Part shown: piece after piece, positions 5,770 to 60,934 of the stretch | Numbering within the stretch: position 1 is the first letter of the stretch | How the letters are laid out: every line of letters starts with the position of its first letter | Assembly (NCBI GenBank): GCA_963763815.1 | Contig: CAVXPS010000019.1 | Coordinates: forward strand, 15,713-79,712 | DNA from: an uncultured Actinomycetes bacterium | Lineage (GTDB): Bacteria > Actinomycetota > Thermoleophilia > Gaiellales > Gaiellaceae | DNA length: 64,000 bases | Direction: 5' to 3' | Notes under the pieces: model-generated | Seen by the model: only the letters and a program-made list of their open reading frames with translations | Told to the model about the DNA's origin: nothing | Databases searched by the model: none | Position numbers and translations under genes: made by a program

Positions 5770-5779
5770 GAGTGCCAGC

Positions 5780-36530: not shown

Positions 36531-36533
36531 GGG

Positions 36534-41271: not shown

Positions 41272-41277
41272 GCGCGC

Positions 41278-41955: not shown

Positions 41956-42146
41956 CGGGCGACCTTGGTCGGCCGATGAGCGTGGAGGGGTGTGGGGAAC
42001 CGGGAGGTTCCCCACGCTTTCAGGAAGAAGGGGGCAGACTCAGCTCTCGCAAGACCGGAGTTCGCTTGCGCGAACTCCGGTCGCAGAAAGGCATGGGGAA
42101 ACATGGTTTCCCCCACCAACGCGAGCCGGAGGCGAGCGTGGCTCAT
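41950..42146 (-). repeat. Intercistronic multi-hairpin repeat, copy C (full length, archetype)
   Basis: Fills the gap from the formyltransferase stop to the PIG-L start. Hairpins lie at 42095..42113, 42054..42081 (ACCGGAGTTCGC-ttgc-GCGAACTCCGGT), 41994..42013 and 41950..41981 (containing the start codon). The 64-aa mini-ORF 41952..42146 has ATGA overlaps at both ends. By my manual alignment the core differs from copy B at only 2 positions over about 125 nt. Confidence 0.85.
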
Positions 42147-43033
42147 CCGAGCCTCGCTCCCACGGCGAGCTGGCCCGCGGTCTCGATCTCCTCGAGCAGG
42201 AGCGCGCCCTCACCGCAGGCGACGACCGGACCCTCCGCGTGCTCCGCGACGATCGTGCCGGCCGGCGCGTTCTCGGCGTCCTCGACGGGGCGCGCGCGCC
42301 AGACGACGACCTTCTCCTCGCCGAGGTACGTGAAGGCGCCGGGATAGGGCCGGGTCTGGGCGCGGACCCAGTCGTAGAGGTACGGCGCGCGCGTCTCCCA
42401 GTCGATGATGCCGTCTGCCGGCCGGCGACGGTGCCAGGAGCTCGCCCGCAGCGGATCCTGGGGAATACGCGGAGCCGTGCCGGCGACGATCTGCGGCACG
42501 TACTCGCGGATCAGGTCGAGGTGCGCAGCGGCGAGGCGCTCGAAGAGCGTGGTCGCCGTGTCGTCCGGCTCGATCGCGACCACCGCCTGTCCGACGATCG
42601 CACCGGAGTCGGCCGTCTCGTCGACGATCTCGAACAGCGTGACGCCCGTTCGCGCCAGGCCCGACAGCAGCGCCCACGGGATCGACGCGCGGCCGCGGTG
42701 TCGGGGGAGCAGCGTCGGGTGCATCCCGAACACGCCCTCGTGCGCGGCTGCGATGAACGGGTCGCGAACGAGCTGGTACCAGCCGACGACGAACACGAGC
42801 TCGGGATCGAGCTTGCGCAGCGCGTTCAGCGTCAGCTCCGAGTTGACGTCGTTCGTCTCGATGTAGTCCGCGCCGAACTCTCCCGCGACGTCGTCGAAGC
42901 GGCATCGGGCGGAGCGATCGATGGACGCGGTCTCCGGAAGCGTGACGACGCCGACGATCTCCGCCCCCGATTCTGCGGCGGCGACCAGGCAGTCGCGGCC
43001 GATGATGTCGTCGCTGACCCAGACCGTGCGCAT
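42143..43033 (-). CDS. Formyltransferase (Fmt/ArnA N-terminal-like; sugar N-formyltransferase candidate)
   Basis: 296 aa with VVGWYQLV, HPTLLPRHRGRASIPWAL (the SLLP/HxSLLPxxRG-type motif) and a C-terminal Fmt-like beta-barrel. Confidence 0.87.
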   Translation of the reverse strand: MRTVWVSDDIIGRDCLVAAAESGAEIVGVVTLPETASIDRSARCRFDDVAGEFGADYIETNDVNSELTLNALRKLDPELVFVVGWYQLVRDPFIAAAHEGVFGMHPTLLPRHRGRASIPWALLSGLARTGVTLFEIVDETADSGAIVGQAVVAIEPDDTATTLFERLAAAHLDLIREYVPQIVAGTAPRIPQDPLRASSWHRRRPADGIIDWETRAPYLYDWVRAQTRPYPGAFTYLGEEKVVVWRARPVEDAENAPAGTIVAEHAEGPVVACGEGALLLEEIETAGQLAVGARLG

Positions 43034-43045
43034 CGCGGAGCGATG

Positions 43046-43948
43046 CTAGTCGACGGCCGGAGGCAGTCTTTCGGTGCGGCTGCGCTGGATGCGGATCCAG
43101 CTATGGCGGCCGAGGTAGACGAGGAGTGCGACGAGCCCGGCCGTGAGGACGACGACGACGATCGTTCCAGCGAAGGGAACGTCGAGGAGCTTGATCCCCG
43201 CGAGACCGAGCACGCCCGCGAGCAGAAGCCGGAGCTTCTGCTCCGGGATCGCGAAGCTGACCCGACCCCCGATGAGGACGCCGGGAATCGAGCCCAGCAG
43301 GAGCCAGCCGAGAATCGCGAAGTCGACGTTCCCCGCGGCCCAGTGCGCAGCCCCGGCGACGTACAGGAGCACGGCCGCGTGGAAGATGTCCGTGCCGACC
43401 ACCTTGTGCGCCCGCAGCGGGAAGATGATCAGCAGCGTCAGCCCGAAGAAGACGCCGCTGCCGACCGACGTCAGGCCGACGATGAACCCGCCGAACGCGC
43501 CGATGAGGATCGCCGCGAGGCAGTCCCTCCTGCTCAGCCGCGCGGGCATTTCGCCGGTCGTAGCGGGACGGATCACGCTCTTCGCGACGAGCCCGGCCGC
43601 GCCGAACAGAAGCGCCCCTCCGAGTACCTGGCCCATCACCGACTCGACGTCGTCGCCGTAGCGGTCCGTCAACTGGACGGACACCCAGACGCCGACTAGC
43701 GACATCGGCGCCGAGCCGATGAGCATCCAGCCCGCGAGGCGCGCGCGCACGTTGCCCATCCGACGGTGCTGGGCGGCCCCGACCGTCTTGAACACGGCTC
43801 CGTGCGCGATGTCCGTGCCGATCGCGGTCGTCGGCGAGATCCCGAACACGAAGACGAGGATGGGGGTCATCAGCGACCCCCCACCCATGCCGGTCATCCC
43901 CACGAGCACGCCCGTGAGGAGACCGACGACGACGAACTCCCAGTCCAT
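43046..43948 (-). CDS. TauE/SafE family sulfite/sulfonate exporter-like membrane protein
   Basis: 300 aa with GMTGMGGGSLMTPILV and a second half-repeat GLTSVGSGVFFG, typical of the TauE/SafE (DUF81) 4+4 TM duplication. Confidence 0.87.
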   Translation of the reverse strand: MDWEFVVVGLLTGVLVGMTGMGGGSLMTPILVFVFGISPTTAIGTDIAHGAVFKTVGAAQHRRMGNVRARLAGWMLIGSAPMSLVGVWVSVQLTDRYGDDVESVMGQVLGGALLFGAAGLVAKSVIRPATTGEMPARLSRRDCLAAILIGAFGGFIVGLTSVGSGVFFGLTLLIIFPLRAHKVVGTDIFHAAVLLYVAGAAHWAAGNVDFAILGWLLLGSIPGVLIGGRVSFAIPEQKLRLLLAGVLGLAGIKLLDVPFAGTIVVVVLTAGLVALLVYLGRHSWIRIQRSRTERLPPAVD

Positions 43949-43959
43949 GCTATGCGCAA

Positions 43960-43990
43960 GACCGAAATCCGCTAAGCGCGGATTTCGGTC
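43960..43990 (-). promoter_or_regulatory. Perfect 13-bp stem hairpin 12 nt upstream of the TauE start
   Basis: GACCGAAATCCGC-taagc-GCGGATTTCGGTC. No Shine-Dalgarno sequence is visible between it and the ATG. Confidence 0.35.
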
Positions 43991-44008
43991 GCGCGAAGAC
44001 CCCTAAAG

Positions 44009-44027
44009 GCGGCCGCTTCGCGGCCGC
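44009..44027 (-). terminator. GC hairpin after sat (weak intrinsic-terminator candidate)
   Basis: GCGGCCGC-ttc-GCGGCCGC; on the minus strand it is followed by CTTTAGGGG. It lies 27 nt after the sat stop. Confidence 0.35.
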
Positions 44028-44053
44028 TCGGTTGGCGTGTCCACATCGCTCAC

Positions 44054-45190
44054 CTAGCCTCGGTAGGCGTCGATCAGAACCCGCGCGACGTCCGGTCGCG
44101 TGAACTCGACCGGCGGCACGTCGCCCGCTTCGAGCATCTCACGCACCTTCGTTCCCGACAGGAACACGCGATCCTCCGGCCCGTGCGGGCACGACTTCGT
44201 GCTCGCCATCGACCCGCAGACGTTGCACCAGAAGGTGTGCTCGAAGAACATCGGCTCGATGTCGAGCTCGTGCGGCGCGAACTCGTCGAAGATGAGCTGC
44301 GCGTCGTAGGTGCCGTAGTAGTCGCCGACGCCGGCGTGGTCGCGCCCGACGATGAAGTGCGAGCAGCCGTAGTTCTTGCGGCAGATCGCGTGCCAGATAG
44401 CCTCGCGCGGCCCCGCGTAGCGCATCGCTGCGGGGAACGCCGAGAGCAGGACGCGGTCCTCCGGGTAGTAACCGTCGAGCAGCGTGCGGTAGCACTCGAC
44501 GCGTACGTCGACCGGAACGTCGTCGGACTTCGTGTCGCCGACGAGCGGATGGACGAGCAGCCCGTCCACCGTCTCGAGAGCCACTTTCGTCAGGTACTCG
44601 TGGGCCCGGTGGATCGGGTTTCGGGTCTGGAACCCGACGACCCGCTTCCAGCCACGCTCGGCGATCGCCGCGCGTGTGTCCGCCGGATCGAGCGCGAGCT
44701 CAGGGAATGCCGGGGTCGCGCGCTCGAAGACGGTGACGCGGCCGGCGAGGTAGAGGGAGCGCTGCCCGTACAGGCGGGCGACGCCCGGATGCGCTTCGTC
44801 CTTCGTGCGGAAGCAGTTCTCCGCCTCGCGCTCCTTGTCGTACTCGTAGACCTCCTCGACGTCGAGCACCGCAACCGGTCGCCCGGACTCGTCGAGGAGC
44901 GCGACACGGTCACCCGTCGGCGCTGCATCGACGGCGAGGCAGACCGGAAGCGCCCACGGAAGGCCGCTGGTGAGATGCATGTCGTCGACGACGCGCTCGT
45001 AGTCCGCACGCCCCATGAAGCCCTCGAGCGGTGAGAGCGCGCCCGAGGCGAGCATGTCGAGGTCGGAGAGCTCGCGGGACGTCAGCTGGACGGTCTCGAG
45101 CGAATCGAGATCGCCCGGCCGCTCTCCCGTCCGGTCGACGAGCGAGCCGCCATGCGGTGCGATCAGGCGATCGGTGGCCGCGACCGTCAC
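44054..45190 (-). CDS. sat: Sulfate adenylyltransferase (ATP sulfurylase, homo-oligomeric Sat type)
   Basis: Contains VGFQTRNPIHRAHE, HPLVGDTKSDD and GRDHAGVG. GTG 45190 forms a GTGA overlap with the cysC stop. The N-terminal part of the track ORF is out-of-frame junk. Confidence 0.92.
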   Translation of the reverse strand: MTVAATDRLIAPHGGSLVDRTGERPGDLDSLETVQLTSRELSDLDMLASGALSPLEGFMGRADYERVVDDMHLTSGLPWALPVCLAVDAAPTGDRVALLDESGRPVAVLDVEEVYEYDKEREAENCFRTKDEAHPGVARLYGQRSLYLAGRVTVFERATPAFPELALDPADTRAAIAERGWKRVVGFQTRNPIHRAHEYLTKVALETVDGLLVHPLVGDTKSDDVPVDVRVECYRTLLDGYYPEDRVLLSAFPAAMRYAGPREAIWHAICRKNYGCSHFIVGRDHAGVGDYYGTYDAQLIFDEFAPHELDIEPMFFEHTFWCNVCGSMASTKSCPHGPEDRVFLSGTKVREMLEAGDVPPVEFTRPDVARVLIDAYRG

Positions 45191-45786
45191 GCCGACACCT
45201 TGGCCGGGACGAGCCCTAGCTCCTCGAGCCTCTCGAGCACGTACGCAGCAGATTCCTCGGGCGTGATCCCCTCTGTGTCCACGACGATCTCGGCCTGGGC
45301 GGGCGCCTCGTACGGGTCGTCCACGCCGGTGAAGCCCTTGATCTCGCCGGCGAAGGCCTTCGCGTAGAGCCCGTTCACATCCCGGCGGGCGCACTCTTCG
45401 AGTGACGTCCGCACGTGAATCTCGATAAACGGGCCATGCTCCTCGACAAGGGCCCGTGCGTTCTTCCGTGCCTGCTCGTATGGCGAGATCGCCGCCACGA
45501 TGACCGCGCCCCCGTGGCGGGTGACGCGCGAGGCCACCCAACCCAGGCGCTCGACGTGGGCATCGCGGTCTTCCTTCGAGAAGCCCAGGCCTTTCGAGAG
45601 GTGCGTGCGCACGGTGTCACCGTCGAGGTACTCGACGACGAGGCCGCGGCTGTCCATCTCGGGACCCACGTAATGCGCGATCGTCGTCTTTCCTGAGCCC
45701 GACAGGCCCGTGAACCAGAGCGTGAAGCCGCCGCCACGATCGGTCTCGGACTCGGGGTGCTCATGCGCATAGATGTGCTGACTCAT
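45187..45786 (-). CDS. cysC: Adenylyl-sulfate (APS) kinase
   Basis: Reads MSQHIY...FTLWFTGLSGSGKTTIA (P-loop), LDGDTVR, FSKEDRD, AAISPY. ATG 45786 forms an ATGA overlap with the cysH stop. Confidence 0.92.
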   Translation of the reverse strand: MSQHIYAHEHPESETDRGGGFTLWFTGLSGSGKTTIAHYVGPEMDSRGLVVEYLDGDTVRTHLSKGLGFSKEDRDAHVERLGWVASRVTRHGGAVIVAAISPYEQARKNARALVEEHGPFIEIHVRTSLEECARRDVNGLYAKAFAGEIKGFTGVDDPYEAPAQAEIVVDTEGITPEESAAYVLERLEELGLVPAKVSA

Positions 45787-46520
45787 GCCGTCCTTTCGAG
45801 TTTCGTGTCTTCGTGAATGCCGCACTCGAGCTTGTCGGAGCCCGCCCAGCGCCCCGCGCGCTCCTCCTCGTCCGGGTTCGTCGGGCGTGTACAGGGGATG
45901 CAGCCGATGGAACGGTACCCGGCTTCGTGCAGCGGGTTGAAGGGAATCTCGTTCACGTCGATGTAGGCCCAGACCCTCTTCTCGTCCCAGTCGGCGAGCG
46001 GATGGATCTTGAAGACGCCGTAGCGCTCGGACCACTCGATCTTCTGGGTGTCCGCGCGGCTCGGCGACTGGTCGCGCCGGATGCCGGAGATCCAGGCGTC
46101 GTACGGTGCAAGGGCGTTCACGAGCGGCTCGACCTTGCGGATGTGGCAGCAGCGGTCCGGATCCCGCTCCCAGAGGTTCGCGCCCTCCGCGCGGTGCTGC
46201 TCCGCGACCGTCGGGATGGCCGGCTGGATGAGCTTCAGCGCGTACCTGTCCACGAGCCGGTCGCGTGTCTCGTACGACTCGCGGAAGAACAGGTGTGTGT
46301 CGAGCTCCACCGTGTCCATGCGCAGGCCGAGGTCGGCGACCATGTGCACGAGCACGGACGACTGCTTCTGCCACGAGCACGTCAGGCAGAGCCGTGGCCA
46401 GAAGAACGAGTGCGCCCAGGCGATGAGCTCCTCGGCCGACATCGCCTCGAAGTCGAGGTCAGGAAGCCGGGGCGGGCTCGTCGACGCGGGAACCGCCGTG
46501 GTATTTCGTGCGACCGCCAC
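45783..46520 (-). CDS. cysH: Adenylylsulfate/phosphoadenylylsulfate reductase, Fe-S cluster type (CC...CxxC plus ECGIH)
   Basis: 245 aa with SWQKQSSVL, RCCHIRKVEPL, GIRRDQSPSR, SIGCIPCTRP and KLECGIH. The CC and CxxC pairs mark the [4Fe-4S] APS-reductase subgroup. Confidence 0.9.
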   Translation of the reverse strand: MAVARNTTAVPASTSPPRLPDLDFEAMSAEELIAWAHSFFWPRLCLTCSWQKQSSVLVHMVADLGLRMDTVELDTHLFFRESYETRDRLVDRYALKLIQPAIPTVAEQHRAEGANLWERDPDRCCHIRKVEPLVNALAPYDAWISGIRRDQSPSRADTQKIEWSERYGVFKIHPLADWDEKRVWAYIDVNEIPFNPLHEAGYRSIGCIPCTRPTNPDEEERAGRWAGSDKLECGIHEDTKLERTA

Positions 46521-47345
46521 CTATGCGTCCCCGCTGGTAAGGAGGGGGCTCGCGGGGGAACCATGGGTTCCTCCGCGTAAGAGCACCTCCTTGAGTGTGT
46601 CGGCGCGCAGGCCGAGCCGGAGCGTCTCGAGCGCGATGACCTCGTCCGGCGGGATGTTCCCGAGGTTCACCTCGGTCCCGAAGTGGCGGACGAACCACGC
46701 CTGCGAGCTCTTCGTCGGCGCCTCCCAGATGAGGTCGTGGAAGCTCAGCGAGTGCTCGATCTCGTCCACGAGCCCCGTGCGCAGCTCGCCCGTCGGGCGG
46801 TAGATCCCGGCCGTGCCGCCCTCACGGCCCTCGGCGATCACCTTCCAGGCGCCCGCGTCGAGCTCCTCGCGCATCCACTGCACCCACAGGTACGGCGCGA
46901 TGTTCACCTCGGAATCCTTCGAGCCGACCTCGGAGAGGACGACGAAGTCCCGCGCAAAGTCGGTGATCAGCTCGAGCTTCGCGTCGCGCGGGATCTCGAG
47001 CGTGCCGTCCGAGATCTCGACGTGCGAGAAGCGGTAGTGCTCGAGCCAGCGTTTGAAGTCATCCATCTTGCCCTGGCCGTAGACCGCCTCGAAGAGCGTC
47101 CCCCCGCAGACGACAGGAGTGTCGAACGAGCGGTAGAGGGCGATCTTCTTCTCGAGGTTGTTCGTGACGTAGCTCGTGCCCCAGCCGAGCTTCACGATGT
47201 CCACGTACTCCCCGGCCGTGTCGAACAGCCCCTCGATCTCCCGGAGGTTCAGGCCCTTGTCCATGACGTGGGTCAGGCCGCGGGAACGCGGCTTGCCCTC
47301 GCGCGTGGGCACATCGAGGAAGGAGTGGTCAAGAGAGTCGTGCAT
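46521..47345 (-). CDS. comA: (2R)-phospho-3-sulfolactate synthase (ComA family)
   Basis: Reads MHDSLDHSFLDVPTREGKPRSRGLTHVMDKGL...YVDIVKLGWGTSYV...VCGGTLFE...HVEISDGT...VLSEVGSKD. A GGAGGA RBS sits 5 nt before ATG 47345. The TAG stop abuts the cysH GTG. Confidence 0.88.
   Translation of the reverse strand: MHDSLDHSFLDVPTREGKPRSRGLTHVMDKGLNLREIEGLFDTAGEYVDIVKLGWGTSYVTNNLEKKIALYRSFDTPVVCGGTLFEAVYGQGKMDDFKRWLEHYRFSHVEISDGTLEIPRDAKLELITDFARDFVVLSEVGSKDSEVNIAPYLWVQWMREELDAGAWKVIAEGREGGTAGIYRPTGELRTGLVDEIEHSLSFHDLIWEAPTKSSQAWFVRHFGTEVNLGNIPPDEVIALETLRLGLRADTLKEVLLRGGTHGSPASPLLTSGDA
46541..46577 (-). repeat. Solo hairpin module related to the intercistronic repeat (copy D, partial)
   Basis: GGAGGGGGCTCGCGGGGGAACC-atg-GGTTCCTCC resembles the GGAGGGGTGTGGGGAACC-ggga-GGTTCCCC module of copies B and C. 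It lies between the conserved end of ComA and the cysH start, and is read through as the ComA C-terminal tail. Confidence 0.55.
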
Positions 47346-47934
47346 AGATGTCCTCCAGCTTCTGGCGGGCTCGTTCCTGCACGTCGCGGTAGAGCGAGTT
47401 GCCGTGCGCGTCGATCCCGACGGTGAGCGGGCCGAAGTCCTTGACGCGGAACTTCCAGAGGCACTCGGGCATGAGCTCCTCCCAGGCGACCTCCTCGATC
47501 TCCTCGATCTGCGTCGTCTCGAGCGCCGCGGCGCCGCCGACGATCGCGAAGTAGACCATCCCGAGACGGTGCATCGGCTCGATCGCCTCGTCCGGGAACC
47601 CGCCCTTGCCGCAGATCGCGCGGACGCCGTACTGCTCGCCGAGCGGCTCGGTGAAGCGCACCATGCGCGCGCTCGTCGTCGTCCCGATGCACATCTTCTC
47701 GTAGCGTCCCCTGCCTTCGGAGTCTGTGCCGACCTTGCGGACGTTCGGCGCCGTATGCAGGAGAAATGCACCGGAGAGGTCCATCGGCGGCTCGACGCCC
47801 TGGTCGAAGATGCGGATCTGTGTCCGGTCGCGGATCCCGATGATGTGGCCCTGGACGATGACCTCGTCGCCCGCGCGGAGCTTCATGATCTCGGCCGGAT
47901 CGGTGACGGGGAAGGTGACCTCGTGCGTCCCCAT
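47329..47934 (-). CDS. Fe-S hydro-lyase beta subunit (class I fumarase / tartrate dehydratase C-terminal-domain type)
   Basis: Reads MGTHEVTFPV...GDEVIVQGHIIGIRD...LLHTAPNV...TTSARM...ICGKGG...VYFAIVGGAAAL. ATG 47934 follows a GGAGG. Confidence 0.85.
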   Translation of the reverse strand: MGTHEVTFPVTDPAEIMKLRAGDEVIVQGHIIGIRDRTQIRIFDQGVEPPMDLSGAFLLHTAPNVRKVGTDSEGRGRYEKMCIGTTTSARMVRFTEPLGEQYGVRAICGKGGFPDEAIEPMHRLGMVYFAIVGGAAALETTQIEEIEEVAWEELMPECLWKFRVKDFGPLTVGIDAHGNSLYRDVQERARQKLEDIYARLS

Positions 47935-48830
47935 CACGCCTCCCGGTCGTAGTCGATCGAGCCGTCGGCGGAGACGTGCGCGGTTGCACGGCGCGCGGCC
48001 CAGCACTGGTAGTTCACGGCGACGGGGTTGAGCGTCATGTGCGTGTCCGCGTGCTCGACGTGGACGGAGAGGACTGTGACGTCGCCGCCGAGCCCCATCG
48101 GCCCGATGCCGGTCTCGTTCAACAGCTCGTAGAGCTCTTCCTCGAGCTGCGCGACGAGCGGATCAGGGTTCCGCGTGTCGACCGGCCGTGCGATCGCCTC
48201 CTTCGCGAGGTGCATCGCGTAGTCCGCCGACCCGCCGATCCCGACCCCGACGATTCCCGGCGGGCACGGCTTGCCGCCGGCGTCGACGATCGACTCCAGC
48301 ACGAACTTCTTGATCCCGGTCACGCCGTCGGCCGGGACACACATCTTGAGGAAGCTCATGTTCTCCGAGCCCGAGCCCTTGGGGACGCACTTCACGTCGA
48401 GCCCGTCCCAGTCGGGCACGAAGTCCCAGTGCACGATCGGCACGCGGAAGCCGACGTTCGGCCCCGTGTTCTCGCGGGTCAGCGTGTGGACGGTGTTCGA
48501 GCGCAACGGATGCTCGACGGTCGCGCGCTCGGTCCCGATCTTGAGCGACTCGTAGATCCGTGCGGGGTGGAGCGGGAAGCCCTCGCCGACGCGGCAGTAG
48601 TAGACCGGGATGCCCGTGTCCTGGCAGACGAGGTTCTTCTCGTCGTCGGCGATGACGACGTTGCGGTGGATCGTCTCGAGGACGCGCTTGCCGGTGACCG
48701 ACGTCTCGCGCTCGCGTGCGGCGGACAGGGCATCGCGCAGGTCCTGCGGGATGTCCTTCAGCGCCCAGACGTAGAGGTACGCGGCCGCGTCCTCGACCGC
48801 TCCCGCGATGTCCGTGACGGTGATGCTCAC
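47934..48830 (-). CDS. Fe-S hydro-lyase alpha subunit (class I fumarase / tartrate dehydratase N-terminal-domain type)
   Basis: Reads VSITVTDI...LVCQDTGIPVYY...KCVPKGSGSENMS...CPPGIVGVGIGGSAD. GTG 48830 forms a GTGA overlap with the flavoprotein stop. Confidence 0.85.
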   Translation of the reverse strand: MSITVTDIAGAVEDAAAYLYVWALKDIPQDLRDALSAARERETSVTGKRVLETIHRNVVIADDEKNLVCQDTGIPVYYCRVGEGFPLHPARIYESLKIGTERATVEHPLRSNTVHTLTRENTGPNVGFRVPIVHWDFVPDWDGLDVKCVPKGSGSENMSFLKMCVPADGVTGIKKFVLESIVDAGGKPCPPGIVGVGIGGSADYAMHLAKEAIARPVDTRNPDPLVAQLEEELYELLNETGIGPMGLGGDVTVLSVHVEHADTHMTLNPVAVNYQCWAARRATAHVSADGSIDYDREA

Positions 48831-50068
48831 GCCGTCGCCCTCGCGGCAGCGGCGCGCCCTGCGCGCCGGCCGAACACCGTGCACTCGAGGAGGGAGTTGC
48901 CCATCATGCGATTCCTTCCGTGCGTGCCGCCCGCGATCTCGCCGCAGGCGAAGACGCCTTCGAGAGTGGTCTCGGCGTGCTCGTCGATGACGAGGCCGCC
49001 GTTCTGGTAGTGGAGGACCGGGTACGTGAAGATCGGCTCGGCGAGTGGATCGATGCCGGCGCCGCGATAGCGGCGAAGCATGTACGGGAGGGAGATTGCG
49101 GCGTCCTCCGGCGCGATCCGCGTCGTGTCGAGGAGGACCGCCGGCCGGCCGTCCGGGGTCAGCACGCCCTTCCCCTTCTCCACCTCGTCGAAGATCGCCT
49201 GCGAGACCGCGTCGCGCGCGCCGAGCGAATCCGTGAACTCCTCTCCGTCGGCGTTCAGCAGAACCGCGCCGTAGGCACGGGTCGTCTCGGGGATCGAGTA
49301 GCCCTGCATGGTCGCCGGCCAGGCACCGCCGTTCGGGTGGTACTGGAGCGCGTCGAGGTCGCGCTCGGCCGCCCCCGCCTCGAGTGCGACGCGCGTCACC
49401 TCGCCGGTCGCGTTCGGATGGTTCGTGGAGAGCTCGCCGCGCGCTTTCGCCTCGCGGAAGCAGCGGCCGCCGGCTGCGAGCACGACGGCACTCGCGTCCA
49501 CGTCGGCGACGCCGTCCCTCGTCTCGAAGGTCGCGCGCCAGCCTGCCGGTGTCGGCGCGATCGCGGTCAGTCGGTGGTGCGAGAGCACCGTGCCGCCGCC
49601 GGCCTCGTACGCCTCGCGCAGCGATCTGGTGATCGCGTGTCCCGTCCGGTCGCCGACCTGAAGGAGGCGCTTGCGGGTCGCGCCGCCGCAGCGGGCAAGC
49701 CGGTAGCCGCCGCTACCGGAATCGCCTTGGCCATTCCGGCCATTGGACGTCTCCCGGGTGAACTCGACGCCGAGCTCCTCGAGCCAGTGGATCGCGGAGG
49801 GCGCCTCGCTGGTGAGGACCTCGACGAGCCGCGGGTTCGCCGTCTCGTGTGAGCTCCGCATGACGTCCTCGGCATGAATCTCGGGCGAGTCGTCCTCGCC
49901 GAAGGCCGCCTGGATGCCGCCCTGGGCCTTTGCGGAGTTGCACGCTTGAAGCGTCGTCTTCGTCGCGAGGCCGACCCTGGCGCCGGAGTGCTCGGCAGAG
50001 ACGGCGGCAGCGAGCCCGGCCGCACCGCTCCCGACCACGAGCACGTCGAACGAAGGCGTCTCGGCCAC
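48827..50068 (-). CDS. FAD-binding oxidoreductase of the fumarate reductase/succinate dehydrogenase flavoprotein family (short, soluble form)
   Basis: 413 aa with DVLVVGSGAAGLAAA, AQGGI, LQYHPNGG and VFACGEIAGGTHGRNRMMGNSLLECTVFGRRAG. It lacks the C-terminal helical domain, and no Fe-S or membrane subunit is nearby. Confidence 0.85.
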   Translation of the reverse strand: MAETPSFDVLVVGSGAAGLAAAVSAEHSGARVGLATKTTLQACNSAKAQGGIQAAFGEDDSPEIHAEDVMRSSHETANPRLVEVLTSEAPSAIHWLEELGVEFTRETSNGRNGQGDSGSGGYRLARCGGATRKRLLQVGDRTGHAITRSLREAYEAGGGTVLSHHRLTAIAPTPAGWRATFETRDGVADVDASAVVLAAGGRCFREAKARGELSTNHPNATGEVTRVALEAGAAERDLDALQYHPNGGAWPATMQGYSIPETTRAYGAVLLNADGEEFTDSLGARDAVSQAIFDEVEKGKGVLTPDGRPAVLLDTTRIAPEDAAISLPYMLRRYRGAGIDPLAEPIFTYPVLHYQNGGLVIDEHAETTLEGVFACGEIAGGTHGRNRMMGNSLLECTVFGRRAGRAAAARATA

Positions 50069-50084
50069 GGACGGATCCTACACC

Positions 50085-50122
50085 ACATCGTTATCTCTGT
50101 CATTACTGATCTTTATGTAACT
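50085..50122. promoter_or_regulatory. AT-rich divergent promoter region (sulfur operon / CBS gene)
   Basis: This is the only AT-rich patch in this part of the window: ACATCGTTATCTCTGTCATTACTGATCTTTATGTAACT. It lies between GTG 50068 (minus) and GTG 50173 (plus). I did not assign confident -35/-10 hexamers. Confidence 0.4.
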
Positions 50123-50172
50123 CGCGTGGCGCATCACCGCGCGATCCTCGGCAACTGGCTAGACTCGCGCCT

Positions 50173-50580
50173 GTGGCGACGCTCGCCGACATCGTCAAGC
50201 CGGACTTCCTGACCGTCGCGCCCGAAGACACGCTCGGCGAGGTGGCCGAGCGCATGACGCAGAAGAACGTCGGCGCCGTCGTCGTGAAGGATCACGGCCG
50301 GCTCATCGGCATCCTCACGGAGCGCGACATGCTGCGGGCGATGGCCGCCCGCGTCCACACGAGCGACGCCCGCGTGCGCATGTTCATGACGGAAGACCCC
50401 ATCACCGCGTCGGCCGACATGGACCTCGATGACGCCGCGCAGGTCATGCTCGACAACGGCTTCCGCCACCTTCCGGTCGTCGAGGGCGCCAACGTGCTCG
50501 GCGTCGTCAGCCTTCGGCGCGTCCTCGGCGGGCGCCGGCAGCCGTCCCCGGAGACCGCTCCGGCTCCCGAAGCCGCCTAA
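50173..50580 (+). CDS. CBS-domain pair protein
   Basis: 135 aa with two CBS motifs: VGAVVVKDHGRLIGILTERDMLRA and FRHLPVVEGANVLGVVSLRRVL. Confidence 0.85.
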   Translation: MATLADIVKPDFLTVAPEDTLGEVAERMTQKNVGAVVVKDHGRLIGILTERDMLRAMAARVHTSDARVRMFMTEDPITASADMDLDDAAQVMLDNGFRHLPVVEGANVLGVVSLRRVLGGRRQPSPETAPAPEAA

Positions 50581-50583
50581 CGG

Positions 50584-51543
50584 CTACCAGATCGAGCGCA
50601 ACAGAGCCTCGGCGTCGTCCACCGTGACCGGCCGCGGGTTCGCGCGCGCGCCCGGACGCCCGACGACCGCCTCGGCGACCTCGCGCAGATCGCCCTCCCG
50701 GATCTCGAATCCGCGGAGCCGGTCGAAGCCGCCGAGCCCGGCGAGCTCCTCGACGCGCGCAGGCGCGTCCTCCGTCTCGAGCGCGTCGGCGAGCTGAGCG
50801 ACCGCATCGGGCACGACCGGCTCGTTGAACCGGAGCGCAGGCGGCAGCGTCAGCGCATTCATCGCGCCGTGCGGGAGCCCGTAGCGCCCGCCGAGCGCCT
50901 GGGCGAGCGCGTGACCGAGGAAGAGCCCGCGTTCGCCGAGAGCGCGGCCCGCGTGCAGCGCTCCTTCGAGCAAAGCCGTCCGCGCCTCGAGGTCGCGTCC
51001 GTCGGCGACGACCTGCGGCAGGTGGCGCCCGATGAGACGTGCGCCGGTCGTCGCGTCCTCGAGCGGCCCCGCGTACAACGCTTCGGCGGCATGCGCAAGG
51101 GCGTTGAGCGCGGTGCCCACGGTCTCGGCGCGAGGGAGCTCGAGCGTGAGGCGGGGCTCGTAGACGACTCCGACGACGCGGGCACCCGTGCCGCCCGTCT
51201 TGAGCCTGCGCCCCTCGTCCCGCATGCCGAAGAAGGGCGTCCACTCGGCTCCGGCATATGTGGTCGGGACCGCGACCACCGGAAGGCCGGTTTCGGCCGA
51301 CACCGCCTTGCCGGTATCGATCGCGCTGCCGCCTCCTGCTGCGACCACGAGGTCTGCCTCCTGCGCGGCTGCGATCGCCGCCGTCACCGTCTCGACCGGG
51401 CTGTGCGGGCGTACGCCGGTATACCGCGAGGTCACCGGCACGTCGAGGTCGCCGAGCCGCTCCGACGTCACGAGCAGTGAGCGCGCGCTCCCCAGCTCGG
51501 CGAGAAGCGGCCCCACCTCGTCGAGTCCCCAGCGGACGATCAT
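50584..51543 (-). CDS. Iron-containing alcohol dehydrogenase family protein (maleylacetate-reductase-like)
   Basis: The tail of the giant track ORF 50584..53958: MIVRWGLDEVG..., AAGGGSAIDTGKAV, VPTTYAGAEWT, LAHAAEAL, HALAQALGGRYGLPHG. ATG 51543 overlaps the LysR stop. Confidence 0.8.
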   Translation of the reverse strand: MIVRWGLDEVGPLLAELGSARSLLVTSERLGDLDVPVTSRYTGVRPHSPVETVTAAIAAAQEADLVVAAGGGSAIDTGKAVSAETGLPVVAVPTTYAGAEWTPFFGMRDEGRRLKTGGTGARVVGVVYEPRLTLELPRAETVGTALNALAHAAEALYAGPLEDATTGARLIGRHLPQVVADGRDLEARTALLEGALHAGRALGERGLFLGHALAQALGGRYGLPHGAMNALTLPPALRFNEPVVPDAVAQLADALETEDAPARVEELAGLGGFDRLRGFEIREGDLREVAEAVVGRPGARANPRPVTVDDAEALLRSIW

Positions 51544-52436
51544 GACGCGAGCCGCGGCGTCGCGAACTCGATGAAGGCGTCGGCGACCCGCGAGCGCGAG
51601 CGCCCCGCCGCCGAGGCCAGCGAGATCTCCCGCGTCGCTTCGAGCCCCTGCACGCGCGCCTCGGTGAGCGTCCCTGCCTCGACCTCGGACTCGACCGCCG
51701 TGCGCGAGATGAACGTCACGCCGTAGCCCGCCTGGACGGCCCGGCGCACCGACTCCTGCAGCCCGAGCTCGAGCCGCACGTCCAGGTCGCGCAGCCGGAC
51801 GCCACGACGGCGCAGCGCATCCTCGACGATCTGCCTGACGCCCGCTCCCTCCTGCATGAGGATGAGTGGCTCGTCTCGAAGCTCGTCCAGCGTCACCGTC
51901 CGCCCCGCGAAGCGGTGGCCTGGCGGGCAGGCGAGGATCACCTCGTCGGAGAAGAACGGCTCGAAGCGCACGCCGCGGTGACGGCGCGACGCCCCGACGA
52001 TGCCGAGCTCGAGCTCCCGGGCGGCGACGCGCTCGACGACGGTGTGCGTGTCTGAGACGGTGAGCGACACGTGGACGCCCGGGTTCTCGCGCTGGAACTC
52101 GCCGAGCAGCAGCGGGACGACGATCGCCGCAGGCCCCGTGGACGCTCCCAGCACGAGGTTCCCGCGCAGCTCGCCCTCGACCGTGGCGGCGACGTCGGAC
52201 TCGATCTGCTCCTCGAGCGCGAGCAGCTTCTGGGCCCCGCGATAGAGCCTCCAGCCCGCCTCGGTCGGCTCCACCCGCCTGCCCGAGCGGTCGAGGAGCT
52301 GCGTCCCCAGCCGCTTCTCGAGCGAGCGCACCTGGAGCGACACCGCGGGCTGCGTGACGCCGAGACGCTCGGCCGCCTGCGAGAAGCTTCGGCGGTCGAC
52401 GACGGCGCAGAAGGCCGCGAGTTGGCGCGTGTCCAT
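51540..52436 (-). CDS. LysR family transcriptional regulator
   Basis: 298 aa beginning MDTRQLAAFCAVVDRRSFSQAAERLGVTQPAVSLQVRSLEKRLGTQLLDR, followed by a LysR substrate-binding domain. Confidence 0.92.
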   Translation of the reverse strand: MDTRQLAAFCAVVDRRSFSQAAERLGVTQPAVSLQVRSLEKRLGTQLLDRSGRRVEPTEAGWRLYRGAQKLLALEEQIESDVAATVEGELRGNLVLGASTGPAAIVVPLLLGEFQRENPGVHVSLTVSDTHTVVERVAARELELGIVGASRRHRGVRFEPFFSDEVILACPPGHRFAGRTVTLDELRDEPLILMQEGAGVRQIVEDALRRRGVRLRDLDVRLELGLQESVRRAVQAGYGVTFISRTAVESEVEAGTLTEARVQGLEATREISLASAAGRSRSRVADAFIEFATPRLAS

Positions 52437-52449
52437 AAGCGGAGCTTAT
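52435..52449. promoter_or_regulatory. LysR-type T-N11-A box
   Basis: ATAAGC-gga-GCTTAT is a perfect palindrome that abuts or overlaps the LysR ATG, in the 40-nt gap to the divergent DUF354 gene. Confidence 0.5.
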
Positions 52450-52476
52450 CCATGAGCAGCGCTGTAGGGTCAGGCC

Positions 52477-53502
52477 GTGCGCGTCTGGATCGACATCTCG
52501 AATTCCCCCCAGGTGCTGTTCTTCCGGCCCCTGATCGGGCTCCTGCGGGCCCGCGGGCACGAGGTGGACGTCACGACGCGCGACTTCGCGCAGACCGTCG
52601 AGCTGCTCGGGCTGCACGGCATCCCGCACGAGGTCGTCGGCCCCCCGCACGCCGGCGCGCAGGCGTGGAGCAAGGCGCGGACGATGGCGGGGAGGCTCCG
52701 TGCGCTCCGTCGCTGGGCGCGCCGCAAGCCGTTCGACATCGTGCTCTCGCATGCGTCCCACGAGCCGCAGCTCGTCGCGCGCTCCCTCGGCATTCCCTCG
52801 GCGTACGCGTTCGACTACGAGTTCGCGCGCGTCCAGCACTCGCTCGGATGCCGGGCGGCACGACGGGTCATCGTCCCCGACGCGATCCCGCAGGACCGCC
52901 TCGACCGGCTCGGCGCCCCGGCCCGAAAGGTGCAGCGGTACCCCGGCCTCAAGGAGGAGTACTACCTCGCCGACTTCGACGCCGACGAGCGGGTGCTCGA
53001 CGGCCTCGGCGTCGATCCGCGGCGAGTGCTGGCGGTCGTGCGCTCGCCGGCCGACGTCGCGCTCTACCACCGCCACGAGGACTCGGTTTTCGTCGGGACG
53101 TTGCGGCGGATCGGGTCCGACGACGGCGCCCAGGCGATCGTCCTGCCCAGGACGGAGGAGCAGCGCCGGGCGATCGCCTCGCTCGCGCTCCCCTCGGTGC
53201 ACGTCCCCGCGCACGCCGTCGACGCGCTGAGCCTCGTCGCGCTGGCCGATCTCGTCGTCTCCGGCGGAGGGACGATGGCTCGAGAGGCGGTCGCACTCGG
53301 CGTGCCCGCGTACACGACGTTCTCCGAGCAGCTCGGCGCCGTGGACGAGGGCCTCGCGGCCGCCGGGAAGCTCCACGTCCTCGCGTCGCCGAGCGCCGTG
53401 CTCCTCGAGAAGCGCCGGGCGAGGACGGAGCGCCCCGACCGCGACCCCGCTCTGCTCCTCGACCTGATGCTGACCGCGCTCGAGCGCCGCGGATCCGTAT
53501 AG
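52477..53502 (+). CDS. DUF354 domain protein (GT-B/epimerase-like fold)
   Basis: 341 aa (MRVWIDISNSPQVLFFRPLIGLLRARGHEVDVTTRDF..., VVSGGGTMAREAVALGVP) that resembles DUF354 as I recall it. Confidence 0.6.
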   Translation: MRVWIDISNSPQVLFFRPLIGLLRARGHEVDVTTRDFAQTVELLGLHGIPHEVVGPPHAGAQAWSKARTMAGRLRALRRWARRKPFDIVLSHASHEPQLVARSLGIPSAYAFDYEFARVQHSLGCRAARRVIVPDAIPQDRLDRLGAPARKVQRYPGLKEEYYLADFDADERVLDGLGVDPRRVLAVVRSPADVALYHRHEDSVFVGTLRRIGSDDGAQAIVLPRTEEQRRAIASLALPSVHVPAHAVDALSLVALADLVVSGGGTMAREAVALGVPAYTTFSEQLGAVDEGLAAAGKLHVLASPSAVLLEKRRARTERPDRDPALLLDLMLTALERRGSV

Positions 53503-53554
53503 CCGAATCGTCTCGATCTGGTTAAGGTCCCCCGCGGTCCGACAAGGAGGGGAG

Positions 53555-55240
53555 ATGAGAGGACGGACACGCGTGGCGCTGCTGACGCTCTCCCTGGCGG
53601 TAGTCGCCGCCGGGAGCGCCGGAGCGGCCGGCGATCCAGGCTTCAAGACGTCGCAGGCGGCGATGCTCATGCAGGGCGACCGCGGCGACGTCGAGTTCAC
53701 GCCGATCATCACGGTCGGCGAGACGCTGGCGGGCGGGTATCGGTTCGAGGCGATCCCCGACGGGATCTCGCTCATCCGCCGCACCCAGAACAAGGTGGAC
53801 GTGTACGTGAACCACGAGACCTCGCTGGTGGCGTTCCCGTACGTCGCCGCGGCACCGACGGCGGCCAACTCGCAGAACGACTTCGACAACTCGCAGCTGA
53901 GCCAGCTCAGCCTCGACCCCGACACGGGCGGCGTCATGCACGCGAGCATGGCGATCACGAGTGCGCAGAACTACCAGCGCTTCTGCTCGAACTACCTGGC
54001 GACCAGGGCCGAGGGCTTCAGCCGCCCGACGCTCTTCACGAACGAGGAGGCGCAGGACTGGGTCTTCCGCTCGGGGACCGCGTGGACGTCTCCGATCACG
54101 CCCGGCACGCCGGGCGCGGAGCAGGCAGGAGTCGTCGTCGCGCACGACGTGCCGAGCGGTCAGTCGCGGACGATCTACGGCATGGGCCGGCACAACCACG
54201 AGAACGACCTCGCGCTGCCCGGGTTCGACGGCGTCGCGGTGCTCTCGGGCGACGACACGTTCTCGACCACGCCTGCGTCGTCGCAGCTCTACCTGTACAC
54301 GGCGGCGGGCAGGAACGCCCTCTGGCACGACAAGGGGACGCTGCGCGCGTTCGTCGCGGACGATCCAGCGGAGAACGACTACTTCGACGTGCAGCCCGGC
54401 GAGACCATCACCGGTCGGTTCCTGGCCGTGCCGAAGACCATCGCGACGGGCAAGAAGGCGGACGGAACGGAGCTCCTGTCCACGGACTTCCCAGGGATGG
54501 CTGCGCCGCCCGCGACGATCCCGAACGGGCCCCAGTGGGTGCTCGACCAGTGGGGGAACGCGGCGAACAACGAGTACGGGAGGGACGTCTTCGACTTCAT
54601 CCGGATCGAGGACACCGCGTACGACAAGCGGCCCGGGATGTCGAATGTCGTCTATCTCGCCGACTCCGGCCGTGGCACGGCCGGGGCGGCGAACCCGCTC
54701 ACGACGTCGACCAACGGCCGCGTCTGGAGGCTCGAGCTCGATCCGAGCGATCCCCTGAAGGCGAAGCTCTCGATCCTCGTTCAGGGCGACGACAATCCGG
54801 TCAAGACGCTCGGCGAGATCCACCAGCCTGACAACGTCGAGACGACGGCCAACGGGAGCCTGCTCGTGCAGGAGGATCCGGGCTCGTCGCAGCAGTTCGC
54901 ACTCCCGACCTCGGATCCGAACGCGACGACCGCGCGCATCTGGCGCGTCCCGCTCGCGGGCGGCGCACCCGAGGTCGTCGCGAAGGTCGACCAGGCCGCG
55001 GACGAAGGCCCGACGGACGTCGACCCGAGTGGCCTCAGCAGCCTCGGCGCCTGGGAATCCAGCGGCGTCGTCGACGCCTCGGCGGTCTTTGGGCCCGGCT
55101 GGTTCCTCGTCGACGTGCAGGCGACGACGCTGTGGGTCGAGGCCGCGCCCGGCCCAGACATCGTGGCGCCGGCAGGCCCGGACTGGACGTTCAAGCGCTC
55201 GGGCGGTCAGCTCCTGCTGATGAAGATCCCCGGCGCCTGA
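53555..55240 (+). CDS. Secreted DUF839 / PhoX-like phosphatase family protein
   Basis: 561 aa with a signal peptide (LLTLSLAVVAAGSAGAAG). YVNHE, FCSNYLA, GMGRHNHEN, PDNVE and a beta-propeller-like repeat character are present. The family call is moderate. Confidence 0.62.
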   Translation: MRGRTRVALLTLSLAVVAAGSAGAAGDPGFKTSQAAMLMQGDRGDVEFTPIITVGETLAGGYRFEAIPDGISLIRRTQNKVDVYVNHETSLVAFPYVAAAPTAANSQNDFDNSQLSQLSLDPDTGGVMHASMAITSAQNYQRFCSNYLATRAEGFSRPTLFTNEEAQDWVFRSGTAWTSPITPGTPGAEQAGVVVAHDVPSGQSRTIYGMGRHNHENDLALPGFDGVAVLSGDDTFSTTPASSQLYLYTAAGRNALWHDKGTLRAFVADDPAENDYFDVQPGETITGRFLAVPKTIATGKKADGTELLSTDFPGMAAPPATIPNGPQWVLDQWGNAANNEYGRDVFDFIRIEDTAYDKRPGMSNVVYLADSGRGTAGAANPLTTSTNGRVWRLELDPSDPLKAKLSILVQGDDNPVKTLGEIHQPDNVETTANGSLLVQEDPGSSQQFALPTSDPNATTARIWRVPLAGGAPEVVAKVDQAADEGPTDVDPSGLSSLGAWESSGVVDASAVFGPGWFLVDVQATTLWVEAAPGPDIVAPAGPDWTFKRSGGQLLLMKIPGA

Positions 55241-59010: not shown

Positions 59011-59072
59011 CGCGGGAGTCTAGAGAGGGATGGCGGCTGCGCTCGGCTACTGCGCAGGCGACATGTCCGGCG

Positions 59073-60858: not shown

Positions 60859-60934
60859 GGCTGGTCGAGGGTACCCGGACCAGAACCGGCCATTTGCAGG
60901 TTCTTACACGTTACGAACACGGACTGAGCGCCCC

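Follow-up and report, generated by a model that had tools for sequence, protein, structure and literature searches.

A candidate ComA-dependent sulfonate pathway with an FrdA-like flavoprotein among the surface glycan genes of Gaiellaceae and other bacteria

Four consecutive minus-strand genes encoding a short FrdA-like flavoprotein, the two subunits of an iron-sulfur (Fe-S) hydro-lyase and the phosphosulfolactate synthase ComA were analyzed in a 64,000-nucleotide (nt) stretch of DNA from a soil actinobacterium of the Gaiellaceae (Actinomycetota, Thermoleophilia; GCA_963763815.1, contig CAVXPS010000019.1, positions 15,713–79,712), hereafter the window. An undescribed ComA-dependent pathway that would hand sulfoacrylate to the flavoprotein is well supported by comparative genomics. 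The full model, in which sulfite and phosphoenolpyruvate (PEP) would be converted to 3-sulfopropanoate for amino-sugar decoration of a surface glycan, has about an even chance of being correct as judged from sequence. Somewhat short of even is the wider proposal that Actinomycetota (Gaiellaceae), Nitrospirota, Omnitrophota and others use an undescribed route to 3-sulfopropanoyl, possibly sulfoacryloyl, groups on surface amino sugars. That proposal includes two new activities, an FrdA-type sulfoacrylate reductase and, in Gaiellaceae, an (R)-sulfolactate dehydratase derived by recruitment of a class I fumarase.

The four genes occupy positions 50068–46521 of the window and are, in order of transcription:

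48827–50068, minus strand: short soluble FrdA/SdhA/NadB-family flavoprotein of the PE type, 413 amino acids (aa) (PF00890, FAD_binding_2, E = 7e-63, 213.7 bits)
47934–48830, minus strand: Fe-S hydro-lyase alpha subunit, class I fumarase/TtdA type, 298 aa (PF05681, E = 2e-91, 306.5 bits)
47329–47934, minus strand: Fe-S hydro-lyase beta subunit, 201 aa (PF05683, E = 1.9e-26, 93.1 bits)
46521–47345, minus strand: ComA, phosphosulfolactate synthase, 274 aa, start uncertain by a few codons (PF02679, E = 4.5e-86)

Genes for CysH, CysC, Sat and TauE lie directly downstream of comA on the same strand. The flavoprotein and alpha genes have GTGA in common, alpha and beta overlap by 1 nt (TGATG), and beta and comA overlap by 17 nt, provided that ComA starts at the ATG at 47345. 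The comA and cysH genes abut, cysH and cysC share ATGA, and cysC and sat share GTGA. These junctions fit translational coupling. Coordinates, Pfam matches and junctions thus bear out a first-pass annotation of the window, which had described four coupled genes upstream of cysH-cysC-sat. The window has a GC content of ~70%, at which long spurious open reading frames (ORFs) abound in the six-frame list, and real frames were chosen by third-position GC. Examples of spurious ORFs opposite or overlapping real genes are 50584–53958 (1124 aa) and 39344–41506 (720 aa).

The main argument for the pathway comes from relatives outside Gaiellaceae. Homologs were sought among 1.8 billion representative proteins, which yielded a ~400-aa flavoprotein family at 33–56% identity, and the contigs encoding them were inspected (loci are cited by L numbers). 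Locus L081 (47% GC) encodes, in order, Polysacc_synt_2, Wzy_C, a flavoprotein 42% identical to that of the window, Fumerase alpha, Fumerase beta, ComA, His_Phos_1, PIG-L and ATP-grasp proteins, and the order flavoprotein-alpha-beta-ComA recurs there. L171 (positions 1–6320; Omnitrophota, GCA_049645445.1) has flavoprotein, alpha and beta genes directly after those for NeuB, a CMP-sugar synthetase, a GFO/IDH/MocA oxidoreductase and a class III aminotransferase; its contig ends before any ComA gene could be seen. L082/L083, L084 (Nitrospirota), L085, L086, L088, L169 and L170 encode a Lyase_1 protein with the flavoprotein and ComA, and no hydro-lyase.

The slot between or beside flavoprotein and ComA genes is thus filled by Fumerase alpha and beta in Gaiellaceae, L081, L087 and L171, and by Lyase_1 in L082, L084, L085, L086, L088, L089, L090, L169 and L170. 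The two were never found together in one locus. The Lyase_1 proteins have XcbC as their best NCBIfam match, at 455–491 bits versus 266–293 bits for ArgH (~190 bits lower). The L086 lyase, used as a query, is 35–40% identical to lyases of the xcb clusters of Xanthobacter Py2, Nocardioides JS614, Mycolicibacterium chubuense and Methylocystis iwaonis and ~30% identical to ArgH. XcbC has been shown experimentally to convert phosphosulfolactate to sulfoacrylate by phosphate elimination (PMC9457059). Because the two lyases replace each other in the same slot, sulfoacrylate would be the flavoprotein substrate, and this mutually exclusive occupation points to both lyases as its suppliers. The first-pass annotation had placed sulfoacrylate between the lyase step and the flavoprotein, and the swap lends this independent comparative support. 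It had also taken the absence of an XcbC-type enzyme as a mark of separateness; that view is abandoned, as an XcbC-like lyase occupies the hydro-lyase place in related loci.

Linkage to ComA follows one clade of the flavoprotein. A metagenome scan with a short-flavoprotein profile returned 80 loci, and the proteins were grouped by alignment at a Thr-Glu ('TE') loop, in which the window flavoprotein has Pro in place of Thr ('PE' motif). For the PE group (~400 aa), all 9 of the 9 non-Gaiellaceae loci that span 5 kb or more have the flavoprotein beside ComA (7 with an XcbC-like gene, 2 with Fumerase and 7 with ATP-grasp), compared with 0 of 61 loci for the TE/SE group (~415–477 aa; Fisher p = 1.5e-11). 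L169 and L170 are two additional ComA-linked PE cases. Pairing of flavoprotein with Fumerase was rejected as evidence: TE-type proteins are paired with canonical Fumerase without ComA on many metagenome contigs, and only the PE-type clade is informative. A clade with a TEKVRS loop (~415–465 aa; L107, L111, L115, L118, L121–L123, L130–L132, L138 and L152) is often followed by canonical Fumerase alpha and beta genes, with no ComA. Several of these contigs are from the human gut, and the combination may be a soluble malate-to-succinate module in anaerobes.

Within the family, the arrangement is conserved. A ComA scan of genome contigs returned Gaiellaceae only, and the closest ComA sequences and loci, 82–96% identical, are all from Gaiellaceae metagenome-assembled genomes (MAGs). 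Among the comA loci of 80 species-level Gaiellaceae genomes, comA-cysH-cysC is nearly universal and the flavoprotein/alpha/beta trio lies directly 5′ of comA in ~62–70. The trio-comA arrangement is not a product of chance. In loci that lack the trio (e.g., L071 and L078), a LysR gene and a short gene resembling iron-containing alcohol dehydrogenases (Fe-ADH-like) run directly into comA; the trio is therefore viewed as a module added onto a ComA/sulfite core. Co-localization with comA, on which the first-pass annotation had staked its proposal, accordingly recurs both in Gaiellaceae and in the PE clade, with the qualification that the lyase is often XcbC-like and not a hydro-lyase.

A scan for known-pathway genes covered ~55 ORFs of the window. 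No ComB, ComC or ComDE was found among these ORFs or in related loci, and no XcbC, XcbD or XcbE among these ORFs; an XcbC-like protein used in tblastn matched nothing in the window or in the 80 Gaiellaceae loci. The related loci contain XcbC-like genes and no adenylosuccinate-lyase-like XcbD, no pyridoxal phosphate (PLP)-dependent XcbE and no XcbA. SuyAB and sulfolactate dehydrogenase had no Pfam or NCBIfam match among the scanned window ORFs, and no sulfopyruvate decarboxylase occurs in any related locus. Both the reported absence of ComB/ComC/ComDE, xcb enzymes and SuyAB and the lack of fit to known coenzyme M (CoM) or sulfolactate-degradation schemes were borne out for the window. Literature searches turned up neither a ComA/flavoprotein/lyase module nor a glycan with 3-sulfopropanoyl groups.

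The flavoprotein has PF00890 as its only Pfam domain and no PF02910. It aligns to residues 8–404 of the 540-aa NadB structure 1chu and to the matching part of SdhA/FrdA, and so lacks the C-terminal domain. Its scores are far below every NCBIfam equivalog cut-off (NadB, TfrA, SdhA and FrdA). The best match is NadB, with 243.7 bits versus a cut-off of 452.75 for TIGR00551 and other NadB models also below theirs; TfrA scores 223 versus 718 bits. The NadB equivalog assignment is thus not reached, and no nadA or nadC lies nearby. Complex II features are likewise absent: there is no covalent-FAD His, no PF02910 and no SdhB/FrdB-like gene among the window ORFs scanned. In alignments with 1chu and the Sdh structure 7d6v, Asn stands at the position of the covalent-FAD His, and the fumarate-reductase catalytic His, Arg (proton donor), His and Arg are retained in QYHP, ARD, LHY and GRNRM. 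Catalytic R285, H353 and R387 are invariant across the short flavoprotein clade; the QYHP His is retained in most members and is Gln in proteins P0250 and P0255. Non-covalent flavin adenine dinucleotide (FAD) with retained catalytic residues typifies reductases and NadB rather than succinate dehydrogenases. For an FrdA-type enzyme with non-covalent FAD, double-bond reduction would be the only sensible reaction on sulfoacrylate, and the protein is a candidate sulfoacrylate reductase giving 3-sulfopropanoate.

The hydro-lyase subunits exceed the cut-offs of the TIGR00722 and TIGR00723 subfamily models, and alpha matches Methanocaldococcus jannaschii fumarase alpha (7xky_A) at E = 4e-75. The beta subunit is under curated cut-offs, at 147 versus 269 bits for fumarate hydratase (NF004708) and 143 versus 264 bits for TtdB (NF006082). 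Alignment to 7xky_A/B and 5l2r shows the cluster-cysteine motifs CQDTG, KPCPPG and QCWA and the Gln-Asp pair retained in alpha, and the substrate-binding motifs IRD, TTTSARM and GKGG retained in beta. Under the Cahn-Ingold-Prelog rules, the spatial configuration of (R)-sulfolactate matches that of (S)-malate (L-malate), the class I fumarase substrate. Sulfolactate and sulfoacrylate are argued to be the hydro-lyase substrates because its genomic position replaces XcbC, which makes it a candidate (R)-sulfolactate dehydratase.

ComA matches PF02679 over model positions 2–243 of 243 (288.7 bits, cut-off 25.2). It aligns over its full length with Bacillus subtilis YitD (1u83; E = 5.5e-59, residues 9–251) and M. 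jannaschii ComA (1qwg; E = 3.6e-46, residues 21–252). Its score of 240 bits is below the 280 bits of the archaeal equivalog TIGR03849, and it is not an archaeal-type equivalog. The genes around the four supply sulfur or flank the operon:

45783–46520, minus strand: CysH, adenosine phosphosulfate (APS)/phosphoadenosine phosphosulfate (PAPS) reductase (PF01507, E = 1.9e-44; NF002537, 244 versus 154 bits)
45187–45786, minus strand: CysC, APS kinase, which makes PAPS (PF01583, E = 2.4e-58)
44054–45190, minus strand: Sat, ATP sulfurylase (PF01747 and PF14306; NF003166, 527 versus 387 bits)
43046–43948, minus strand: TauE/SafE-family anion permease (PF01925, E = 1.8e-41)
39344–40336 (approximate), minus strand: sulfotransferase-like gene, probable PAPS consumer (tblastn)
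52436–51540 and 51543–50584, minus strand: LysR regulator and Fe-ADH-like oxidoreductase, upstream on the same strand
50075–50103, minus strand: promoter-like site ATGACA-17-TAGGAT (sigma-70 consensus match only)

The co-transcribed sulfite supply (Sat and CysH) is consistent with ComA adding sulfite to PEP, and the sequences support reading the operon as a putative sulfate-to-sulfonate unit. The CysH cysteines (CC...CxxC; motifs DRCCH, GCIPC and ECGIH read from the translation) are of the Fe-S (APS) type. This type makes sulfite without CysC; CysC probably feeds PAPS to the neighboring sulfotransferase, which gives PAPS a use. Further 3′ of TauE, the same strand carries a formyltransferase-like gene, a PIG-L deacetylase, a FlgD_ig protein and the sulfotransferase-like gene, which is 53% identical over 297 aa (tblastn, E = 5e-93) to an L087 Sulfotransfer_3 protein that follows a FlgD_ig gene; this match is in another frame than the ORF at 39397–40260. 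TauE genes follow sat or cysDN in 70 of the 80 Gaiellaceae loci. The permease was initially annotated as an exporter, which it need not be; it could equally import sulfate or export sulfonate.

A variant operon in L069–L073, L075, L076 and L078–L080 (e.g., L071, 7269–15017) encodes LysR, Fe-ADH-like, ComA, CysH, CysC, CysD, CysN and TauE proteins. Its CysH is of the PAPS type, without CC...CxxC, and CysDN stands in place of Sat, both being swapped together. The window LysR passes the NCBIfam cut-off for 'selenium metabolism-associated LysR' (258.6 versus 250 bits), and its gene overlaps that of the 319-aa Fe-ADH-family protein. The pair is conserved 5′ of comA whether or not the trio is present, with an Fe-ADH homolog in 46 of the 80 loci.

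The promoter-like site is the sole sigma-70-like match in positions 39000–52600 (13.6 kb; 0.5 expected). It lies just 5′ of the flavoprotein start, within an AT-rich 104-nt gap facing a divergent CBS gene. That gene (50173–50580, plus strand) encodes a 135-aa CBS-pair protein, is found in 55 of the 80 Gaiellaceae loci, mostly alongside the trio, and may specify a ligand-sensing regulator. A terminator scan found sites no more numerous than expected by chance, and an Rfam scan of 39000–52600 gave two sub-threshold chance matches and nothing else. The four genes are proposed to head a long operon inside a ~40-kb cell-surface polysaccharide locus.

This polysaccharide locus (~20–60 kb of the window) encodes an epimerase, GT4 and GT2 glycosyltransferases, a FemAB/GNAT-like protein, DUF354, Polysacc_synt_2, DegT, a Wzx-type flippase, Wzy_C, two PIG-L deacetylases, a formyltransferase and two ATP-grasp proteins. 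Three of its products are candidates for the attachment of an acyl group:

35895–36548, minus strand: PIG-L family de-N-acetylase, probable liberator of the sugar amine (PF02585, E = 4.8e-17)
28085–29293, plus strand: ATP-grasp carboxylate-amine ligase, LAL_C2 type (PF18603, E = 4e-15, and ATP-grasp domains)
22926–24125, plus strand: second ATP-grasp-like protein (weak CPSase_L_D2 Pfam match)

The PIG-L protein is 57% identical to that of L081, whose gene is located between ComA/His_Phos_1 and ATP-grasp genes. The ligase encoded at 28085–29293 is 29% identical to ATP-grasp proteins encoded next to the flavoprotein and ComA in L082 and L085 (E = 6e-37 and 7e-33), and the second ATP-grasp-like protein is 28% identical (E = 3e-30) to the one encoded beside the flavoprotein in L086. 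Lyase_1 loci usually contain an ATP-grasp ligase, with an AMP-binding ligase instead in L170, and are surrounded by genes for glycosyltransferases, DegT aminotransferases, Polysacc_synt_2, Wzy_C, Poly_export or Polysacc_deac_1. Across relatives, the module-linked genes encode GT2/GT4, DegT, Polysacc_synt_2, Wzy_C, PIG-L or Polysacc_deac_1, Poly_export and NeuB/CMP-transferase proteins. All phyla sampled have the module in a polysaccharide locus together with carboxylate-amine ligases, deacetylases and aminotransferases, so that the product probably decorates an amino sugar as an acyl group and is unlikely to be a free metabolite or coenzyme. This conserved cell-surface context points away from the initial idea of a free C3-sulfonate product. 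The L171 module lies in a nonulosonic-acid cluster, a hint that some lineages may use a nonulosonic acid as the acceptor sugar.

A GT2 gene and an LPG_synthase_TM gene are paired at 12883–14824 (minus strand) of the window, and the same pair lies just 5′ of the flavoprotein gene in L085 (7944–9971). A gene for an NAGPA-type phosphodiester glycosidase (59047–60903, minus strand) stands at the edge of the glycan locus. Heme genes at the left end of the window (1260–7099, minus strand; HemE (URO-D), HemD (HEM4) and glutamyl-tRNA reductase HemA) are unrelated to the finding, and a CofH/MqnC-like radical SAM gene (63033–63998, minus strand) is cut by the window end.

What can be read from sequence is the identity of the genes, the operon structure, conservation and co-occurrence, and the reactions of ComA and, in the related loci, of XcbC are established for those families; the substrates of the hydro-lyase and flavoprotein, the redox direction, the ligation and the glycan acceptor are proposed on this basis. 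In the proposed pathway, Sat would activate sulfate and CysH would reduce it to sulfite, which ComA would join to PEP to give (2R)-phosphosulfolactate. Some phosphatase would release (R)-sulfolactate for dehydration to sulfoacrylate by the class-I-fumarase-type hydro-lyase; alternatively, the hydro-lyase would eliminate phosphate directly. The flavoprotein, with its non-covalent FAD, would reduce the double bond to give 3-sulfopropanoate, and an ATP-grasp carboxylate-amine ligase would attach this to an amino sugar whose amine would come from a DegT aminotransferase or from deacetylation by a PIG-L enzyme. CysC would make PAPS for the neighboring sulfotransferase. The predicted outcome is a permanently anionic sulfonated glycan.

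Several observations weigh against this pathway. We know of no glycan that carries a 3-sulfopropanoyl group. The candidate ligase genes of the window are 17–23 kb from comA, and only 2 of the 80 Gaiellaceae loci have ligase genes no more than 10 kb from comA; because of these distances, ligation is the least certain step for the window genome. No electron donor for a reductase is encoded near the flavoprotein. The XcbC-like scores are under the curated XcbC cut-off of 575 bits, and in ~10 of the 80 Gaiellaceae species the trio is missing from the comA-cysH-cysC site. No phosphosulfolactate phosphatase (His_Phos_1 homolog) was found by tblastn in the window or the 80 Gaiellaceae loci. The hydro-lyase has the appearance of a standard fumarase, with all cluster and substrate-binding motifs retained, and alpha passes the NF004885 'fumarate hydratase' equivalog (310 bits, cut-off 276). 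The window beta subunit is 58–64% identical to subunits from sdhBCDA-fumAB operons of Acidobacteria and Planctomycetes and equally close to ComA-linked ones; ComA-linked and sdh-linked subunits are equidistant (57–64% identity for beta, 48–52% for alpha). The hydro-lyase belongs to a clade of genuine fumarases, and its sequence indicates no sulfolactate preference. The residue comparison suggested in the first-pass annotation thus confirmed the catalytic residues of hydro-lyase and flavoprotein and revealed no sulfonate-specific feature in the hydro-lyase.

A sulfonate-specific beta signature (IYTARD to IIGIRD, GPTTS to GTTTS and GMPEA to MPEC) was considered and rejected. These changes are common to the window, L087 and L081 relative to M. 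jannaschii and TE-type-linked Fumerase genes, and the same motifs occur in sdhBCDA-fumAB beta subunits. A search with the L081 beta subunit found this beta type to be widespread, and two sdh-operon members, from Acidobacteria and Planctomycetes, were examined. The signature is a mark of a bacterial fumarase clade, not of a function. In L172 (370–4970, an Acidobacteria MAG) and L173 (5508–10579, a Planctomycetes MAG), two-subunit class I fumarase genes lie inside an sdhB-C-D-A-fumA-fumB operon with overlapping genes.

These similarities lead to the alternative that the two enzymes interconvert malate, fumarate and succinate, the hydro-lyase as the fumarase of the cell and the flavoprotein as a soluble fumarate reductase or an aspartate oxidase like NadB, and that they lie next to comA through shared regulation or chance, not through shared intermediates. 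Short TE-type flavoprotein genes accompanied by Fumerase alpha and beta without ComA, in 13 of 58 metagenome loci, would suit this alternative as well. It is nevertheless unlikely. The PE clade was never seen without ComA where the flank could be checked (9 of 9, versus 0 of 61 for TE/SE), and in most lineages its partner is an XcbC-like lyase, not a fumarase. Gene order and overlaps bind the flavoprotein to ComA, and the surroundings are glycan loci, not tricarboxylic acid cycle genes. Recruitment of a promiscuous fumarase is plausible from gene context only.

A second alternative keeps the proposed pathway to sulfoacrylate and has the Fe-S hydro-lyase eliminate phosphate from phosphosulfolactate, with no phosphatase needed. 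The hydro-lyase occupies exactly the XcbC position, and L171, like the window and the 80 Gaiellaceae loci, has no phosphatase gene. A PhoX-like protein (53555–55240) gave a weak match only and was not adopted as the missing phosphatase. The gap left by the first-pass annotation therefore persists in the window and in Gaiellaceae and is filled in L081, where a His_Phos_1 phosphatase gene adjoins comA. No such gene occurs in XcbC-type loci, and confinement of the phosphatase to a hydro-lyase-type locus is as the sulfolactate dehydratase model predicts because XcbC itself removes phosphate. To our knowledge, all characterized enzymes of the hydro-lyase family remove a hydroxyl bound to the cluster iron, which also counts against direct elimination. 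Such elimination is rather improbable.

An oxidative flavoprotein, in the style of NadB or malate-oxidizing SdhA, would convert sulfolactate to sulfopyruvate or cysteate to an imine, and the product would be of the cysteate, taurine, sulfoacetaldehyde or sulfoacetate type, not 3-sulfopropanoate. The NadB match, the non-covalent FAD, the lack of an encoded reductant partner and the short Fe-ADH-like oxidoreductase conserved 5′ of comA are compatible with this. XcbC-type loci, however, would take the ComA product to sulfoacrylate, a compound that offers neither a hydroxyl nor an amino group for oxidation, and neither a sulfopyruvate decarboxylase nor a module-specific aminotransferase occurs in any locus. 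An oxidative role is decidedly improbable.

It is very improbable that, in the XcbC-type loci, aspartate-dependent amidation is carried out jointly by the ATP-grasp protein, which would ligate aspartate, and the Lyase_1 protein, which would release fumarate, in the manner of PurC and PurB, with fumarase and flavoprotein disposing of fumarate and ComA acting separately. The two proteins do correspond to the halves of the NF002563 fusion family, and two Lyase_1 proteins also pass the ArgH cut-off. XcbC nevertheless scores ~190 bits above ArgH, and the nearest annotated relatives are encoded in real xcb clusters beside ComA. Amidation would also leave the strict ComA linkage unexplained and make two fumarate-disposal enzymes redundant. 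The XcbC-like lyase and adjacent ATP-grasp protein of L085 (11291–14807) and L082 (5226–7996) match the C- and N-terminal halves, respectively, of NF002563, whose 890-position model bears the name 'argininosuccinate lyase'. Fusions of such a ligase and lyase thus seem to exist, and their function may be misnamed.

A catabolic module (3-sulfopropanoate to sulfoacrylate to sulfolactate) or a variant CoM route is barely credible: the same chemistry was proposed for homotaurine degradation in Roseovarius nubinhibens, in thesis work as cited in PMC11489063, and ComA opens both known CoM routes (PMC9457059), but the module is co-transcribed with Sat, CysC and CysH, SuyAB, ComB/C/DE and XcbD/E/A are missing from the window ORFs scanned and the related loci, non-covalent FAD disfavors succinate-type oxidation on family knowledge, and the setting is glycan biosynthesis.

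If the proposed pathway is correct, ComA-derived phosphosulfolactate would have a third fate beside the archaeal and bacterial CoM routes. Two new substrate specificities would be added to the well-studied fumarase and fumarate reductase families, and bacterial surface glycans would gain a new permanently charged, hydrolysis-resistant sulfonate decoration. Much of the soil organosulfur pool is sulfonate of unknown origin. A search returned thousands of near-identical Gaiellaceae ComA sequences, and because soil metagenomes are extremely rich in this type of ComA, relevance to soil organosulfur is possible; very abundant soil bacteria would then be a large unrecognized organosulfonate source. 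The genes are currently labeled aspartate oxidase, tartrate dehydratase or argininosuccinate lyase, and these annotations should be read with caution.

Compared with known systems, the module most resembles bacterial CoM synthesis in Xanthobacter autotrophicus Py2, in which XcbB (ComA) makes phosphosulfolactate and XcbC then makes sulfoacrylate. Loci of the L082–L090 series, L169 and L170 likewise have an XcbC-like lyase gene beside comA. The window differs in having a class I Fe-S hydro-lyase in place of XcbC and no XcbD (cysteine addition), XcbE or XcbA, and in combining an FrdA-like flavoprotein with a glycan setting where the Xanthobacter pathway serves alkene metabolism. An apparently complete bacterial CoM cluster was also noted on a plasmid of the cultured methanotroph Methylocystis iwaonis (L174; NZ_CP143315.1, 194851–200421). 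It encodes a phosphosulfolactate synthase, a hypothetical protein, an adenylosuccinate-lyase-like protein, a PLP enzyme and an argininosuccinate-lyase-like protein annotated as argininosuccinate lyase. Archaeal CoM synthesis (ComA-ComB-ComC-ComDE) and B. subtilis YitCD share with the proposed pathway ComA and a presumed phosphatase step to (R)-sulfolactate. They differ in that the window lacks ComB, ComC and ComDE, the candidate phosphatase of L081 is of the His_Phos_1 and not the ComB type, and sulfolactate would here be dehydrated, not oxidized.

The fumarase and fumarate reductase pair provides the families, the catalytic residues and the logic of hydroxy acid to enoate to saturated acid. 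In contrast, the window flavoprotein belongs to a separate, ComA-linked ~400-aa clade with no C-terminal domain and no Fe-S or membrane partner, and the proposed substrates have a sulfonate where fumarate and malate have their distal carboxylate. The R. nubinhibens proposal for homotaurine catabolism, in the thesis work cited, involves the same three succinate-, fumarate- and malate-like compounds. Its direction and purpose are opposite to those suggested for the window, where the genes are instead coupled to sulfite production and ComA.

Attachment of the product would follow a familiar logic. In mycothiol and bacillithiol synthesis, a PIG-L enzyme (MshB/BshB) frees a sugar amine and an ATP-dependent ligase re-acylates it, and the deacetylase-plus-ligase logic would be the same here. 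In the cluster for misaugamycin, an actinomycete antibiotic, the predicted source of a 2-sulfoacetyl acyl group is a ComA homolog (PMC9136965). The proposed module differs from these systems in its acceptor, apparently a polysaccharide repeat unit (Wzx, Wzy_C and glycosyltransferase genes), in its donor, which would be a C3 sulfonate, and in its ligases, which are of the ATP-grasp or AMP-binding type.

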